From Methanocellales archaeon (GTDB lineage Archaea; Halobacteriota; UBA148): 56,130 nucleotides of DNA. Within the stretch, counting starts at the first letter, position 1; each line of letters opens with the position of its first letter. The notes under the pieces were generated by a model. That model had not been told where the DNA came from and ran no database searches. It saw only the letters and a list, made by a program, of their open reading frames with translations. The position numbers and the translations under genes were made by a program. Shown here piece by piece: positions 25,544 to 45,639 of the stretch. Location of the stretch: assembly GCA_030019435.1 (NCBI GenBank), contig JASEEV010000006.1, positions 1 through 56,130 on the forward strand, read 5' to 3'.

Positions 25544-26794
25544 ATGCCTGAGGTGGGGATTTACAAGAGAAGAGGGCTAGAGATCTGGCTTGAGACTGCT
25601 GAGGATAACATCGAGCTTAAGTCCTCGGGTGCGCTCTCTAAATTGGCTTTTCCCTTGTTGAAAAGGGTAAACAAGATGTTAAGGAATGAGAAGCCAATCG
25701 AGGCGACTGAGGAGGAGGTGGTTTTAAGCACGTGGCTTCCACCGATTCCAAGCGAACCATTCCAAAGAGCCATAAAAGCCGAGATGGATATCTTGCTGAA
25801 GAGGAAATTCTCTCCCCAAGCGGTCTCAATGAATATTTCTGATTGTACACTCAATTGTAGCGAGTGCAACATAGTCGAGCATGAAGGAGAGCTCAAAACG
25901 AAAGAGGTGAAGGATTTTATAGCGCAGATCCAAGACCTTGGGGCGATTACAATTGGATTTGCGGAAGGAGACCCTCTTTTGAGAGAAGACCTTTTCGAAC
26001 TTATAGATTATATAGACAAGAAAAAGTCCATTGCGAGCGTTTTTACCCCCGGTCCTTTGTTGACGGATGAGGTGGCTGCGGAACTGAAAGAGCATGGAAT
26101 ATACGCCGTAATAACGGGAATTAAAAGCCCAATTCCCAGGGAGCATGATGCTGCGAGAGGACTAAAAGGAGCATTTGACAAAGCCGTAAGAGGGATGAAA
26201 AACGCGGTGGAGAATGATCTTTATGTTTCTATGCATACGCATGCAACACCGAAACTCGTGGAGAGCGGGGAGCTTACCAAAATCTACAAACTTGCCTCCA
26301 AGATTGGGGTTCATGAGTTGTCCATCTGGGACAGCCATCCAACCTGGAGTTATAAAGACAGAAAAGAGTTGATTTTGAAAGATAGGCACAGAGGGGAGAT
26401 CATGGAACTGTACAGGAAAGCAAACACCTCTAAAGAGGGACCAAGAATATTCTACAACGCTGTCTTTGAATCTCCAAAGCTCTTCGGCTGTATGGCAGGC
26501 AGGAGATGGTTGAACTTGATACACTCCGGAGACCTGACCCCCTGTACCTATGTACCAATCTCTTTTGGAAATATCAGGGAAGAAAGCGTGGAGAGGATTT
26601 GGAGAAGGATGCGCCAGTTTAAGGAATTCAGGAGGAAGAGATCCTGCGTGATGCTCGATAAGGAATTCAGGTCGAAATGTATCGACCCGTTCTCAGTATC
26701 TGACCTGCCCATCAGCTACAAAGATGTTGTTTTAGCCGAAAATCAAAGATTTTCAGGCTGTCAGAAACCCCCAAATGGGTTTCAACTCATTTGA
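25544..26794 (+). CDS. Radical SAM protein with Twitch/SPASM-like C-terminus (paralogue 1)
   Basis: CTLNCSEC, AEGDPLLR, GCMAGRR..GDLTPC..FGNI; N-terminal STWLPPIPSEPF. Confidence 0.9.
   Translation: MPEVGIYKRRGLEIWLETAEDNIELKSSGALSKLAFPLLKRVNKMLRNEKPIEATEEEVVLSTWLPPIPSEPFQRAIKAEMDILLKRKFSPQAVSMNISDCTLNCSECNIVEHEGELKTKEVKDFIAQIQDLGAITIGFAEGDPLLREDLFELIDYIDKKKSIASVFTPGPLLTDEVAAELKEHGIYAVITGIKSPIPREHDAARGLKGAFDKAVRGMKNAVENDLYVSMHTHATPKLVESGELTKIYKLASKIGVHELSIWDSHPTWSYKDRKELILKDRHRGEIMELYRKANTSKEGPRIFYNAVFESPKLFGCMAGRRWLNLIHSGDLTPCTYVPISFGNIREESVERIWRRMRQFKEFRRKRSCVMLDKEFRSKCIDPFSVSDLPISYKDVVLAENQRFSGCQKPPNGFQLI
26734..26783. repeat. Double-hairpin repeat element embedded in the 3' end of a CDS
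   Basis: GAAAATC-AAA-GATTTTC plus GAAACCC..GGGTTTC. The first hairpin is the reverse complement of GAAAATCTTTGATTTTC at 42461-42477. Confidence 0.7.
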
Positions 26795-36837: not shown

Positions 36838-38309
<1,472 letters not shown>

Positions 38310-38446: not shown

Positions 38447-38558
38447 GGGCTCGTAGCTCAGTTGGAAGAGCGCTGCCTTTGCATCCGAGGGGCTTCGCCC
38501 CATTCGAACCCCAAGGCGAAATAGGCAGAGGCCCTGGGTTCAAATCCCAGCGAGTCCA
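38447..38558 (+). tRNA. tRNA-Ala(TGC) with 39-nt intron at 37/38 (38484-38522)
   Basis: GGGCTCG/CGAGTCC acceptor, CTGCC-TTTGCA|intron|A-GGCAG; BHB central helix TTTG/CGAA. Confidence 0.92.
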
Positions 38559-38664: not shown

Positions 38665-38780
38665 TAGATGCACTCGGTGAGAGAAATCTCGTCGGGGAAG
38701 GGTGGATAGCGTTAATCAGCTAAATGAGACCGCGTATAAGTTTGCGACCCGGACGCTCACTGAGTTCAGTGAAGCGGATT

Positions 38781-41770
<2,990 letters not shown>

Positions 41771-41828
41771 TTGCTGAGCTGAGTTCAGGCGATATCTGGG
41801 TCGCAAACTTATACGCGGTTTTCAAAGC

Positions 41829-41854
41829 GGGTTTCAAGAGGGCGTAGCCCTTTG
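41829..41854. repeat. Hairpin repeat unit immediately before tRNA-Cys
   Basis: GGGTTTCAAGAGGGCGTAGCCCTTTG, same family as 38633-38664 and 40352-40380. Confidence 0.75.
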
Positions 41855-41856
41855 AT

Positions 41857-41977
41857 GCCAAGGTGGCGGAATGGCTAACGCAGCCGCCTGCAGATGAAAA
41901 AGGAAAAAGGTCATCGGAAAACTACGTTTTCCTCGGTGGAGAGCGGCTTTTTGCCGGTTCAATTCCGGTCCTTGGCT
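41857..41977 (+). tRNA. tRNA-Cys(GCA) with 48-nt intron at 37/38 (41894-41941)
   Basis: GCCAAGG/CCTTGGC acceptor, GCCGC-CTGCAG|intron|A-GCGGC, U73 discriminator; BHB helix CTGC/GTGG. Confidence 0.9.
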
Positions 41978-41983
41978 TGCGAC

Positions 41984-42053
41984 TACTTCCGAAGGAAGTA
42001 GGAGTGCTGCAACGAAGTTGCAGCTAGGAGATTCTGAGCGAAGAATCGAGGAG
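41984..42053. repeat. Run of three GAA-loop hairpins between tRNA-Cys and 5S
   Basis: CTACTTCC-GAA-GGAAGTAG, GCTGCAAC-GAA-GTTGCAGC, GAGATTCTGAGCGAAGAATCGAGGAG. Confidence 0.75.
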
Positions 42054-42077
42054 ACGATAGTCATTACGTTCATAAGT

Positions 42078-42206
42078 TGAGCATAGCGGCCATGGCGACG
42101 GGGAAACTCCTGGTCCCATCTCGAACCCAGAAGATAAGACCGTCCACGTTCTATGCTGTACTGAGGTGCGCGAGCCCTTGGGAACCATAGGTCGCTGCTA
42201 TGCTCA
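42078..42206 (+). rRNA. rrf: 5S rRNA
   Basis: TAGCGGCCAT..CCCATCTCGAACCCAGAAGATAAG..GGGAACCATAGGTCGCTGCTA; terminal stem TGAGCATAGC/GCTATGCTCA. Confidence 0.96.
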
Positions 42207-42413
42207 CCTGTTTTATTTTGGGGTTGAGTAGCATTCGAGATATTGTCGATGGCGGCTGGCTCACCTAAGGGTTTTGTTTGTTATGAAAGATAAAAAAACT
42301 TGAATATTTAAATGGACTTGGACAGGAAAGTTGGGAGTTATGTGGAATGCTGGCAGGAGGATGGTTTCTTATATCTAAAAAGGAAATCGAATAAAATGAT
42401 CTATTTAAGTGCC

Positions 42414-42505
42414 AGCCCTTGGGAACCTAGATTGCGAGCGTAGCGAGTAATCGAGGATAAGAAAATCTTTGATTTTCGACCATAGATCGCTGCTATGCTC
42501 ACCTG
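42414..42505 (+). repeat. Second copy of the 5S rRNA 3' end interrupted by a 51-nt hairpin element
   Basis: AGCCCTTGGGAACC[42428-42478]ACCATAGATCGCTGCTATGCTCACCTG versus 42173-42210: one mismatch, and ACC is duplicated. Confidence 0.85.
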
Positions 42506-42918
42506 CTTTTTTCGCGCTCCTCTGGAATCACGACAACAGGACATGATGCCATGTTGATCAGATCTTGGGCTGTACTCTGGCGGATAAATCGATAAATCTT
42601 CTCAAATTTGTAATGTCCCATGACGATCATGTCATAATCCTTGGACATGTCAACGGTCTTCTTTGGGATCTCCTCTGCCTTGCATCTTATATCAAGCAGC
42701 TCATGGCTGGTTTCGACGCCTTGCATCCGTCCCATCTCCGCATATTTGTCTATTGCACCACGTCTTTTCTCGAGGGCTTCGTTCGTATCATCTGCGGTGA
42801 CGATGGTGACCATATGAATTCTTGCACCCAGTTGCTTCGCTAGTTCAGTTGCCGTTTTGACAACGTCCTCATCATCCTTCAACGGATTAACTGGAACAAG
42901 TATCTTTTTGAACATCAC
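42499..42918 (-). CDS. Universal stress protein
   Basis: FKKILVPV, DMIVMG, STAQDLINMASCPVVVI. Confidence 0.9.
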   Translation of the reverse strand: MMFKKILVPVNPLKDDEDVVKTATELAKQLGARIHMVTIVTADDTNEALEKRRGAIDKYAEMGRMQGVETSHELLDIRCKAEEIPKKTVDMSKDYDMIVMGHYKFEKIYRFIRQSTAQDLINMASCPVVVIPEEREKSR

Positions 42919-43280
42919 AACAACTCCTTTGCCTTATCAGCTGCCTTTTCCATCTCAACCAATATCAATCCCAAACCCGCCTCTGGTGGTGTCATGACGA
43001 TCAAAAGGGCTTTGGGACCGGCGCCAGTAGCGATCACCTTTCCTTTTGCGGACTCCACGATGATCCTATCTGGGATTCCCTTCTTCAGCTCCGCCGTTGC
43101 GGTCTCTGCCGCACCTAACATGGTGGCACTCATCGCAGCAAAGGTCTCAGCATGTATCCCAGGGGGAATGTCAGATGTCATGATCAGACCATCTCTTGAG
43201 ACGACGGCAGAGGCTTCTATATCACCAGTCCTTTTTAGATCACTCACTATTTTTTGGAGCGTTTCTGCAACTGTTGGCAT
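42915..43280 (-). CDS. Roadblock/LC7 (MglB-like) protein
   Basis: ASAVVSRDGL..FAAMSATMLGAAE; 1 bp downstream of the GTPase gene. Confidence 0.92.
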   Translation of the reverse strand: MPTVAETLQKIVSDLKRTGDIEASAVVSRDGLIMTSDIPPGIHAETFAAMSATMLGAAETATAELKKGIPDRIIVESAKGKVIATGAGPKALLIVMTPPEAGLGLILVEMEKAADKAKELL

Positions 43281-43281
43281 A

Positions 43282-44451
43282 TCATTTGACCTCTGTTATC
43301 ATGTCGATCAGCGTTTCAAATGCCTCAAACACACCTTTCTTTTCCGTCGCAACGGTTGGGACGATCGGCACCGATTTTGGGACTTTCATTCGCTCTCGTA
43401 GTTCATCCACGCTTAAAGCATCTGGCAGGTCTTGTTTGTTCGCTACGATCACATAAGGAAGCCCGTGTGCCCTCGCAGTCTCTAGCATCTGCTTCGCCCT
43501 GACGAAGTCCATCGGCTTTGATGAGTCTAACACAAGGAACACGCCCATCGCCTCGCCACCGAGCACTTTGAGAATGGGATCAAATCGTTCTTGTCCTGGC
43601 GTTCCAAATATGTCTGCTGCAAATCCTTTGTGGTCTATCCTACCATGATCCATCGCAACGGTAGTTCCAAGGCGGTCCACAGATACGGCTCTGCTCGAGA
43701 TCGCGTGGATAAAAGTGGACTTGCCAGAGTGGTATGCCCCTGTCACAAGGATCTTGGGTATGTATACCCGTATACCAGTAGGTCGAAACACTTTGAACAA
43801 CATCGATCGTTTCTTCACCTCAGCCCAGTCCACCTTTGAGACTCCAAAGTACTGTCCAAATATGACTCGTTCAGCAATTCCTCCGATCGTGACCACCGCA
43901 TCGAACAGCTCTTCTTTTATCTGTTTCAGTGTTTCCTCAGCATAGGGCCAAGCGGTGAAGTTGCAAACAAAGACGTTATTGTACGTCATATGGAGTTTTT
44001 TCCATTTTTTGACATACTCCAACGTCTCCTCCTCTCCACACAGGTCCATGAGGGTCGATAGGGGCTCAAACACGACCAGACCGCTGCCAAGCTCTTCCAT
44101 TGCCTTTGACAAAGTCTCATCCAATGCCCCGATGTTCTCCGGATCGGACACAACGTAGCGTTCATCAGAATCCGCTCCCACTAGTGCCGAATAAGCGTCA
44201 ACGATGATAAATCGATCCTCGAACTTTCCAACATCCCAGCCAAATTCGTTGAAGTGCTCTCTAACCGTATAGGGGGCTGAGCTGATAGTGACATATATTC
44301 CTTTCCCTCCTTGCATCAGATGGTGGTACAAGGTCTGCATCCCAAATACATCACCCTCGACACCAGGTTGTACGTAATATACCAATGACCTGCCTGGTGG
44401 AACTTCTCCACCCATGAAGTCATCCAGTTTTGGAATGCCTGTTTTGAGCAT
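43282..44451 (-). CDS. Fusion of a degenerate KaiC/RAD55-like domain with an MglA-like small GTPase
   Basis: N-terminal KTGIPKLD..GG with a broken Walker A (QPGVEGD). C-terminal GAYHSGKST, TTVAMDHG, FGTPGQERF, NKQD, PTVA. Confidence 0.88.
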   Translation of the reverse strand: MLKTGIPKLDDFMGGEVPPGRSLVYYVQPGVEGDVFGMQTLYHHLMQGGKGIYVTISSAPYTVREHFNEFGWDVGKFEDRFIIVDAYSALVGADSDERYVVSDPENIGALDETLSKAMEELGSGLVVFEPLSTLMDLCGEEETLEYVKKWKKLHMTYNNVFVCNFTAWPYAEETLKQIKEELFDAVVTIGGIAERVIFGQYFGVSKVDWAEVKKRSMLFKVFRPTGIRVYIPKILVTGAYHSGKSTFIHAISSRAVSVDRLGTTVAMDHGRIDHKGFAADIFGTPGQERFDPILKVLGGEAMGVFLVLDSSKPMDFVRAKQMLETARAHGLPYVIVANKQDLPDALSVDELRERMKVPKSVPIVPTVATEKKGVFEAFETLIDMITEVK

Positions 44452-44453
44452 TT

Positions 44454-45143
44454 TCAGTCACCCTTTATCACGATGTTCGCTCCTTCAATCTCATATTCGA
44501 GCCACTCTGTTAGTTTCGAGCCCAATCCTCTTGCCCTAATGAAAAATCGATCGTTCTCTTCTTTGATCTCAATCATACCGTCGACCAGTTGTTTGAGCGT
44601 TGCGATCGTCTGCTCATCGTGCATACCACTCTCGATCACATAGATACCGATGGCATCTGCTACTTTAATTCGGCCCGTGAAGACGTGTAAGAACCTGAAA
44701 ATGGTCTGCAAGTTGGAGTACATCAGCATCGTCGATAATGAGTTGATGATCAGTCTTGTTTTTTGAATACGGGCTCTCATATAGAACTGCTCAAAAAACT
44801 GACTTATCTTGACGCCGATGCCTGTTAGATCCACAGGGCTCGATGCCCTCTTTATGTTTTGCGTGTCGGATACATCCATCCCGAGCGTTCTTGATACGCA
44901 GTCCACGATTCCGAACCGCTCTCTGTCCTTCTCTATGTCCAGCTCGCTCTGCTCAAACCACTTGAGCACACCTTCACCGTGCTCTCTTGTGGATACGAGA
45001 ATAATTCCTTCACCGTTCATTAAGCCAGCATGCACGATGTTGTTGACAAATATCTCTTTCCCGCACATCGGCGGTCCAATTAGCATTATGTTCAGTCCGC
45101 CCTGGACTTTATCCAATTTTGGTATCCCGAGATGATATTCCAC
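44454..45143 (-). CDS. KaiC/RAD55-like ATPase-fold protein
   Basis: LGIPKLD, GPPMCGKE, SSPVDLTGIG, NSLSTMLMY, FRFLHVFTGR, LVDGMIE. Confidence 0.88.
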   Translation of the reverse strand: MEYHLGIPKLDKVQGGLNIMLIGPPMCGKEIFVNNIVHAGLMNGEGIILVSTREHGEGVLKWFEQSELDIEKDRERFGIVDCVSRTLGMDVSDTQNIKRASSPVDLTGIGVKISQFFEQFYMRARIQKTRLIINSLSTMLMYSNLQTIFRFLHVFTGRIKVADAIGIYVIESGMHDEQTIATLKQLVDGMIEIKEENDRFFIRARGLGSKLTEWLEYEIEGANIVIKGD

Positions 45144-45213
45144 GTTAATCTCCTTCGGATTAAGTTGCCTATTTATTACTATAAAATACTTATCCTTCTT
45201 AATTTTTTGAAAG

Positions 45214-45639
45214 TGAGTGAGGAGAGTAAGCCCCCTTTTGTTTCAGCGGCATTCGTCTGAGCGTCATACTCGGGCATCGGCTGGACTCCTTATCTGCCCA
45301 TCTTTGACTTGCACCTACGAGGTTTCGCCGTTCCATCCATGCATGCACGACCTCATCGTCAAAAATCGCAAAAGCGATTTTCTCCTCCTCGATTCTTCGC
45401 TCAGAATCTCGGTTCCGAATCATCGCATTGGTGCAGCGTGGTATCGTTTCTGTGCCAGAGCCAAGACTCTCGCCTTGTGCGCTTACATGCACTCGTATGT
45501 CCAGACGGTGGGGGGACTTTCCTCGCAACCTTTTTGCAAGCAAAAAGGCGTTTCTGTTGCACAGAAACAGCCTCTTTCTACGCAAGTAGAAAGCTGCTTG
45601 ACCAAAAAGTTGTGGCAGCCGCCCTTCCTCTCTCAATCA
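45214..45639 (-). ncRNA. rnpB: RNase P RNA (expanded by two repeat insertions)
   Basis: Minus strand has GAGGAAAGTCCCCCCACC (P4 5' strand, 45524-45507), CAGAAAC, AACAAAAGGGGGCTTA (P4 3' strand) and terminal P1 pairing GAGAGAGGAAG/CTTACTCTCCTC. Confidence 0.93.

Follow-up and report, generated by a model that had tools for sequence, protein, structure and literature searches.

A duplicated 3' end of an archaeal 5S rRNA gene: possible nested scars of a small, target-copying insertion process

How does the 3' end of a 5S rRNA gene come to stand twice in a row, with the gene itself intact and a hairpin lodged in the second copy? This question is raised by a DNA stretch of 56,130 nucleotides (the window), which is contig C65 of an archaeal metagenome-assembled genome (MAG; 1.42 Mb, 87 contigs, 94% complete). 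Here, the rRNA operon has the order 16S-tRNAAla-23S-tRNACys-5S, the 5S gene being the final gene (Table 1). The genome, labelled G000, belongs to a GTDB class of only 14 species genomes.

Table 1. Position, strand and basis of the features at and around the 5S locus.
Feature	Position	Strand	Basis or remark
16S rRNA	36838-38309		operon
Intron-bearing tRNA	38447-38558		operon
23S rRNA	38776-41774		operon
Intron-bearing tRNA-Cys	41857-41977		operon
Three hairpin modules, tRNACys-5S spacer	41981..42046	+	repeat search; strain joints
Complete 5S rRNA gene	42082..42203	+	Rfam RF00001, 94.2 bits, model 1-120
Copy 1: 5S positions ~86-122, 7-nt flank TCACCTG and T run; current 3' end of the gene	42167..42217	+	repeat search, alignment
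57-nt segment absent in one X4 contig, bounded by the 8-nt repeat GCTCACCT	42202..42258		joint 42201->42259, depth 2
AT-rich filler B, GC 0.355 vs 0.464 for the window	42211..42410	.	no family-recognisable ORF
Third, partial copy of the 5S 3' flank, GCGGCTGGCTCACCT	42251-42265		read in sequence
Copy 2, left part GTGCCAGCCCTTGGGAACC, 5S positions ~86-105	42408..42427	+	16/17 identity
TAGATTGC, possibly decayed left copy of the module's short duplication	42428..42435	+	vs ATAGATCGC at 42482-42490, 7/8 after 1-nt gap
Arm X GAGCGTAGCGAGTAATC, antisense to 42485-42500 of copy 2	42436..42452	+	duplex and MFE folds
Linker GAGGATAA, hairpin H (42461-42477, GAAAATC TTT GATTTTC) and GACC	42453..42481	+	identical module in G009, G010, G012, G013
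Copy 2, right part (Y2): CCATAGATCGCTGCTATGCTCACCTG and T run; ancestral 5S 3'-end position	42480..42512	+	31/34; g2 alignment
Usp gene, 139 aa, convergent on 5S	42499..42918	-	PF00582, E 3.2e-16
RNase P RNA, synteny anchor	45215..45634	-	~180 nt behind 5S in sister genus

The final ~41-44 nt of the 5S locus (42167-42210) are repeated at 42408-42427 and 42482-42505. The repeat search matched 42170-42186 with 42411-42427 (16/17 identical) and 42184-42217 with 42479-42512 (31/34 identical), and once the insert in the second copy is removed, both copies align from GTGC to CACCTG and the T run. The similarity ends at ~42408; further left, the score of 12 is that of shuffled sequence (mean 12.7). 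Searched across the entire 1.42-Mb assembly, the right part (22 nt, <=3 mismatches) and the left part (17 nt, <=2 mismatches) each turn up at these two sites and nowhere else. The same layout of both copies is present in Logan contigs from runs of other studies: one 847-nt contig of X2 extends across 42066-42917 with 24 substitutions and 7 gap letters, and overlapping contigs of X4 and X1 lie over the duplication. Since the repeat is shorter than the word size of the assemblers and independent assemblies are concordant, an assembly artefact is unlikely. For the RNA run X9, contigs were obtained over 42079-42207 and none past ~42228, absent cover having no weight in Logan contigs. The 5S gene of the assembly carries G at 42191 and copy 2 carries A (ATAGATC); A is also present in contigs of X2, X4 and X9 (three of the four runs, X1 having G) and in four of five genomes of the sister genus g2. 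The sole mismatch between the right parts of the copies is therefore a strain-specific change in the live 5S gene.

The duplication is thereby confirmed as real. The first-pass annotation had described the end of the 5S locus as recurring ~200 bp downstream beyond AT-rich DNA, the second copy as split by a hairpin insert between two ACC triplets and the stop codon of the Usp gene as lying inside that copy, and each of these observations holds. The Usp stop TGA is the complement of 42499-42501; together with the last two codons it lies inside copy 2, more precisely in the 7-nt flank TCACCTG, outside the mature 5S sequence.

Which of the copies is the older one is indicated by g2. In five genomes of this genus, the 5S gene is followed after ~180 nt by the RNase P RNA gene on the opposite strand. 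In blastn, two of these loci are colinear with window 42479-42614, which comprises the right part of copy 2 and the Usp 3' end; the colinearity starts with the last ~20 nt of their own 5S and continues for ~120 nt (L007, 72%, E 1.8e-13; L003, 70%, E 7.5e-12), and the alignment then skips to window position 45174 onwards, the RNase P region. This shows that the ancestor had a 5S gene convergent on Usp with overlapping ends. Copy 2, displaced but still joined to the downstream flank of the ancestor, represents the old 5S 3' end, and copy 1 together with ~200 nt behind it is inserted material. In the ancestral layout shown by this comparison, the Usp stop already lay within the 5S flank. The polarity is as expected for an insertion at the 3' end that brings or makes a replacement end. 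Furthermore, the stop codon of a protein gene can in this manner become fixed in a displaced fragment of an RNA gene.

Genus g2 subsequently lost 42615-45175 but kept a remnant of Usp, ~110 nt long, between 5S and RNase P. This missing block of 2.56 kb holds most of Usp, a Roadblock/LC7 gene, a KaiC-small GTPase fusion and a KaiC-like DUF7504 gene. In the fusion, a KaiC-like ATPase is joined to a Ras/Arf-type small GTPase (43282-44451, minus strand), and it adjoins the Roadblock/LC7 protein (42915-43280, minus strand), a pairing that resembles MglA/MglB and includes an unusual fusion.

The insert in copy 2 (42428-42481) is 54 nt long, namely 51 nt and the second ACC. The first ACC stands directly before it (42425-42427) and the second forms its final three bases (42479-42481). 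Within the window, its first 34 nt have a single occurrence (0 expected), and its 27-nt halves have no further copy in the genome at <=5-6 mismatches. The right half is the conserved 23-nt module TAAGAAAATCTTTGATTTTCGAC, consisting of hairpin H and fixed linkers. The duplicated flank is either ACC only or ~11-12 nt (ACC-TAGATTGC and ACCATAGATCGC); the longer duplication may apply at the 5S insert and would match the tRNA cases described below. No terminal inverted repeats are found, the left end TAGATTGC not being an inverted copy of the right end ...TTTTCGACC; the inverted pair here is arm X and the flanking target, not one insert end and the other. In the first-pass annotation, the insert had been counted as a copy of a repeat family ("family 3") with a 3-nt target duplication, and duplications of 2-3 nt were to be looked for at the other copies. 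This view has to be revised: the strict module is present once in the genome (looser GAAAATC hairpins six times), an arm antisense to the target is present, and the copies in relatives stand with duplications of 13-21 nt of tRNA 3' ends. Of the hallmarks of MITE- or IS-type elements, neither terminal inverted repeats nor a fixed 2-3-nt duplication nor many near-identical copies were found, and the insert is no ordinary short-duplication element.

The strict module (<=1 mismatch to TAAGAAAATCTTTGATTTTCGAC) was searched in the 14 genomes of the class. It is present in 8 copies in five of them, seven behind tRNA genes plus the 5S case, and all eight lie between the 3' end of a stable-RNA gene and a duplicate of that end. 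The duplicate measures 13-21 nt at tRNA genes and 26-33 nt at 5S. The target genes in the sister genomes encode tRNA-Gly, tRNA-Arg and tRNA-Val. A ninth copy, at a tRNA-Arg gene of G013, was found by homology; its hairpin GAAAACGTTTGGTTTTC has a compensatory T-A to C-G change. Of the nine instances tabulated, eight are at tRNA genes and have duplications of 13-21 nt. The eight strict copies share one layout: the 3' end of the gene (Y1), a short variable stretch, arm X, a linker, H, CGA and the duplicate (Y2), which starts with CC. The linker is mostly CTAA or TTAA (GAGGATAA at 5S), and the right junction ...GATTTTCGA/CC... is common to the 5S and tRNA copies. At tRNA genes, Y reaches from position 61/62 (3' strand of the T-stem) to 1-8 nt beyond the discriminator, and at 5S from CCATAG into the flank and the T run. 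If the tRNA ended in Y2, its position 61 would be an A, hence Y1 is the functional end.

Filled and empty states of the same site are found among close relatives. The junction between tRNA-Gly(UCC) and rpp21 is empty in 11 of the 14 genomes, including that of the window, and filled in G009, G012 and G013 with inserts of 33-80 nt and duplications of 13-21 nt. Both states occur within each of the genera g3 and g4; the insert of G012 differs from that of its congener G013, and the flanks of G012 and the empty G010 are near-identical around this site. In the window's own genome, tRNA-Gly(UCC) (C11:16474-16706; locus L083, G000:C11:15139-18499) adjoins a putative rpp21, which we take to be the gene of the RNase P protein Rpp21 from its translated N-terminus. 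At tRNA-Arg, 10 of the 14 genomes were examined, and the module is complete in three of these, truncated in two and absent from five; at this old site, Y2 is conserved at 13/13 positions in G012 and G013. Every insert has an exact right junction, the left one being variable. The exact right junction and the alternation of filled and empty sites speak for a very small unit that was repeatedly gained (or transferred) in a site-directed manner and lost, rather than for leftovers of large elements. As several instances are orthologues or paralogues, the independent events perhaps number 5-6.

Outside these sites, the pattern is sparse. Among the 39 predicted tRNAs of the window's genome, no duplicated 3' end was found beyond neighbouring paralogous tRNAs. 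A scan of this genome for a hairpin followed by a 12-mer repeated upstream gave 26 matches, all of them tandem hairpin modules, CRISPR arrays or unclear; it misses the 5S case because it needs exact 12-mers. In the pattern scan, the named relatives are MAGs of ~1 Mb labelled Methanocellales or Methanosarcinales archaeon, and the scan of genome contigs gave 8 archaeal loci, which were inspected, and 11 bacterial ones. Of 15 loci inspected in a metagenome scan for H, only L078 lies beside a 23S 3' end, the others being chance-like. Outside the class, the H module was also seen in a canonical tRNA-Arg intron of an uncultured archaeon (L052), together with two other hairpin and GAGGACC modules, and before a sequence resembling a tRNA 3' end at a contig end of an Asbonarchaeaceae MAG (L050).

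The second recurring part is arm X. At 5S, its duplex with Y2 has a predicted energy of -22.3 kcal/mol (z -3.3), which 4 of 1000 shuffles reach (3 of 500 in a second tabulation). In six of the nine instances, 5S among them, the X:Y duplex is stronger than that of shuffles (<=6/500), and in the other three significant pairing is absent. At three H sites lacking a duplication (an rRNA spacer, a tRNA intron and a 23S flank), the duplex is no stronger than in shuffles, with z about 0. Among the positions at which X is not the exact complement of Y, 13 changes retain G.U pairing on the sense strand, 3 would give it on the other strand and 13 are transversions, the instances being partly non-independent. 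The whole X-H-Y unit folds as an imperfect palindrome, whose arms are the inverse and the direct copy of the crossover region.

From this, we favour a reading in which the 5S locus consists of nested scars, left by a lineage-specific process of small insertions in which the 3' end that is hit becomes copied; we assign it a probability of roughly 0.45. The process would bring a short hairpin module and duplicate the 3'-terminal strand of a stable-RNA gene, which would stay intact because this strand is duplicated. The locus would then be a stack of at least two such scars at the 3' end of the gene. In an older event, ~44 nt would have been duplicated and the gene body separated from its former end by a filler of hairpin-derived, AT-rich DNA. 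Copy 2 would afterwards have taken the module, arm X - linker - hairpin H - CGA, which abuts the target CC. The inserted unit would be non-autonomous and very short, measuring 33-80 nt (up to 262 nt at 5S), and it may enter by a single-crossover (Campbell-type) or priming event at the terminal strand of the gene. By analogy with a folded attC or the att site of CTX phage, the folded X-H-Y hairpin might be the recognition structure, and the layout could be the product of a single crossover between the terminal strand of the gene and a small molecule that carries X-H-Y. That the same type of insertion is found behind tRNA genes of sister genomes argues for an insertion scar and not for the remains of a virus-sized island. 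Nevertheless, the 5S case is atypical: its copies are 262 nt apart instead of 33-80 nt, an extra 17-nt piece of 5S lies left of the module, and the first event has left no intact H. For this reason, we only infer that the 5S and tRNA cases result from the same process. Also weighing against this reading are the single copy of the module in the window's genome, the lack of such duplicated 3' ends among its own tRNAs, and the absence of a PF00589 match in two module-bearing genomes, G009 and G013, both of which are incomplete.

Further traces of such events are present around the 5S gene. The right end of filler B is a decayed hairpin of the GGAAATC type, and its left part holds another antisense-like stretch, GGTTGAGTAGCA, and the third partial flank copy GCGGCTGGCTCACCT. 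This points to three events at 5S, apparently all of one kind. Whole hairpin modules are present or absent between strains. In the tRNACys-5S spacer, contigs of X1 and X2 are without 47 nt (41981-42027; joint 41980->42028) with a GA microhomology of 2 nt, and one X2 contig is without 69 nt (joint 41982->42052); a further variant of this kind is that of 57 nt (Table 1). The third spacer hairpin (42029-42046, then GAGGAG) resembles the first hairpin of the 54-nt insert. Three other populations have a 5-nt deletion at 42487, inside Y2, and further changes are found in arm X and the linker, with only two substitutions in 5S itself. The scars at the 5S locus would seem to decay neutrally, save where the Usp stop constrains them.

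The genome in general is rich in purine-rich hairpin modules of 7 bp, which are found in tRNA introns, rRNA spacers, RNase P RNA and even 23S. Within the latter, three modules (GGAGAAACTACGTTTCTCC, CTTGACCC...GGGTGTCAAG and AGGGGCGAAGCCCCT) lie at 40313-40380 and form either an expansion segment of 23S or a small intron; the first hairpin and its flank recur at many tRNA introns of the genome. Many tRNA genes have very long predicted introns (up to ~286 nt, ARAGORN) made of the same modules. The RNase P RNA measures 420 nt here compared with 294 nt in the sister genus, and 76 unaligned nt (45533-45608, minus strand) fold into three hairpin modules. At 26738-26790, between genes, the H-like hairpin GAAAATCAAAGATTTTC with an AGCC/GGCT extension precedes a GAAACCC...GGGTTTC hairpin, and similar double hairpins are present on contigs C14 and C86.

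That elements integrate at tRNA gene 3' ends is textbook knowledge, and the locus could likewise be a classical att scar, as the first-pass annotation had assumed. Here, a virus or plasmid would have been inserted by a tyrosine integrase at the 5S 3' end and mostly deleted down to ~200 nt, with the hairpin module arriving later and unrelated to it. The geometry fits: an intact gene, an insert and a displaced fragment at the ancestral flank are the product of integration at a tRNA 3' end, so that the att-like arrangement of the duplication, with copy 2 as the displaced ancestral end, is supported. The interval is AT-rich, and tyrosine recombinases (PF00589) are found in 10 of the 14 genomes of the order. 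The integrase-borne island, on the other hand, could not be substantiated. No integrase fragment or other family match lies in the interval. A single ORF of >=30 aa has most of its length between the copies; it encodes 43 aa (42312-42443), extends into copy 2 and is without a Pfam match. The one PF00589 match of the genome is on contig C12. The filler has no match in 40 relatives, phages, plasmids or viral contigs, and of the viral contigs 0 carry H and 0 the 5S 3' end. None of the 5S loci of 19 relatives, examined over 359-1517 nt downstream, has a second copy of the 3' end or an integrase-bearing island. All three filled tRNA-Gly alleles are 33-80 nt long, with no large element seen at tRNA sites among the 14 genomes. 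According to a review of archaeal tyrosine recombinases, tRNA 3' ends are their preferred targets and the 5' limits vary; rRNA targets are unmentioned there, the term "rRNA" having 0 occurrences (PMC8371274). In another source, tRNA fragments are tied to a recombinase-bearing element of 1.8 kb, a scale other than the present one (PMC3293823). The literature searched listed no paper in which 5S serves as an att site or in which hairpin modules accompany duplicated tRNA ends. Altogether, we consider an att scar of this kind unlikely.

Other known types of insertion were compared with the module and rejected. A CRISPR-like arrangement, with the hairpin as repeat and the duplicate as spacer, does not agree with the two CRISPR repeats of the genome, which are unlike H. 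A casposon-type insertion does not agree with the variable duplication length and the lack of terminal inverted repeats. For both, Cas1 does not track the modules, being CRISPR-linked in G000 and absent from G012, G013 and G010. A retroelement was rejected as RVT_1 was found in 0 of 5 genomes, some incomplete, and an IS200/IS605-type element as strong TnpB-type matches, present only in G012 and G009, do not track the modules and the module is a single hairpin without paired ends; for integrase, RVT, Cas1 and TnpB-type co-occurrence alike, several of the genomes are incomplete. The internal loop of 4 nt by 2 nt (or 2-nt bulge) is not that of a BHB intron, which has two 3-nt bulges 4 bp apart. 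A second 5S gene or pseudogene was rejected since no Rfam match at E<=10 besides 5S and tRNA-Cys is present in 41780-42560.

Replication errors by template switching or slippage at the 5S processing stem and the hairpins would need no element at all, the hairpins being copied from elsewhere in the genome. The order Y1 - X (inverted) - Y2 is a template-switching pattern, the junctions have microhomologies of 1-3 nt (ACC, CC) or 2-8 nt, whole modules come and go between strains, and the many similar hairpins of the genome are possible donor templates. Such errors would hardly place one 23-nt module, with its asymmetric linkers (TAA...CGAC) and an identical right junction, at four genes in five genomes. 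Moreover, X is inexact even in the apparently recent insertion at tRNA-Gly of G012, where G.U pairs account for 4 of 14 aligned positions, and snap-back synthesis would leave palindromic linkers, which these are not. Snap-back synthesis, hairpin capping of a break and target-primed reverse transcription were set aside because they leave the conserved asymmetric linkers or the imperfect arm X unexplained. Replication errors as the source of the locus therefore appear doubtful to us.

The X-H-Y unit might also be a selected RNA structure, namely a trailer hairpin which mimics the terminal helix of the upstream tRNA or 5S as a minihelix-like signal for processing or protection and which, on the other strand, serves as a 3'-UTR hairpin or terminator of Usp. 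The duplication would then persist because the structure needs it. This would agree with the G.U bias for the sense strand (13 against 3), the compensatory change of H in G013, the 13/13 conservation of Y2 at tRNA-Arg of G012 and G013, the near invariance of H across three families, and the occurrence of H and then TTTTCTTAT on the minus strand directly behind the Usp stop. Against this, most genomes are without the module (11 of 14 at tRNA-Gly), and the one at 5S is decaying, with the 5-nt deletion in Y2 in three populations and other indels and substitutions; above all, selection can keep an exact copy of 13-26 nt but not create it. As an account of the locus, selection on RNA structure is hence very unlikely, even if the module at tRNA-Arg, seemingly old and with a covarying hairpin, is as compatible with a selected RNA structure as with a mobile element. 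A decayed tandem 5S duplicate, suggested by copy 2 following copy 1 in the same orientation, or an assembly artefact is largely refuted and barely credible, as 42204-42560 has no Rfam 5S signal at E<=10, the interval is no more similar to the 5' half of 5S than shuffled sequence is, and contigs from runs of other studies span the junctions.

If the nested scars are indeed the product of a small insertion process, its recurring anatomy of 3' end, antisense arm, conserved hairpin and 3'-end duplicate, measuring tens of nt and polymorphic between close relatives, points to a mode of insertion which copies its own target and thereby spares essential RNA genes. The 5S locus belongs to a broader spread of hairpin modules into stable-RNA genes, in an archaeal class that is little known and has small genomes. 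A bolder version holds that X-H-Y is a new miniature mobile element of archaea, which is directed by pairing of its antisense arm, guide-like or as a folded att site, and not by a transposase site, and which inserts behind the strand of a stable RNA and duplicates it; 5S would have been hit three times in succession. Its ~23-nt hairpin would carry or acquire arms that fit the 3'-terminal strand of the stable-RNA gene in question, a highly expressed one, and 5S rRNA would be a newly recognised target. This is improbable in our estimation. If a small element or guide-like pairing does drive the insertion, it would represent a new design of mobile element and possibly a programmable insertion chemistry.

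Among known systems, there is a likeness in outcome to the att duplications left by tyrosine integrases at the 3' ends of tRNA and tmRNA genes (SSV-, pNOB8- and pTN3/pT26-2-type), which likewise consist of a direct repeat of the 3' end, a restored gene and a displaced fragment, and in which the repeat also extends a few nt past the gene end. In contrast to these, 5S rRNA is a target here too, the inserts are geneless and only 33-262 nt long and do not track an integrase, and each has an inverted copy of the repeat beside a conserved hairpin.

Casposons generate target duplications of 14-15 bp, some at tRNA 3' ends, and several of the instances described here likewise have tRNA 3'-end duplications of 13-17 nt. 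They differ in that terminal inverted repeats are lacking, the duplication varies between 13 and 21 nt (26-33 nt at 5S) and the inserts are tens of nt long. REP/REPIN- and MITE-like repeats are also short hairpin modules, numerous in non-coding transcribed DNA and variable between strains. In contrast, the strict module is rare (0-3 per genome), is tied to the 3' ends of stable RNAs and has long target duplications and an antisense arm matched to the target; to our knowledge, no RAYT or transposase has been linked to such modules.

In its geometry, the unit resembles folded recombination sites. The attC site of integrons contains an inverse core and a core, and attP(+) of CTX phage is a recombination site folded as a hairpin. 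An integron cassette with its attC has the same order of direct copy, content, inverse copy, central palindrome and direct copy, and as in attC and CTX the pairing is imperfect and strand-specific. Here, the arms are 12-17 nt long and tailored to each target gene, no arrays are formed and the hosts are archaea, unlike in the case of attC. The occurrence of recombinases gives no pattern with the folded-hairpin modules (PF00589), and no positive association with IntI or Xer is seen. The likeness to attC is one of geometry only: a direct and an inverse copy of the crossover region, placed on either side of a central hairpin.
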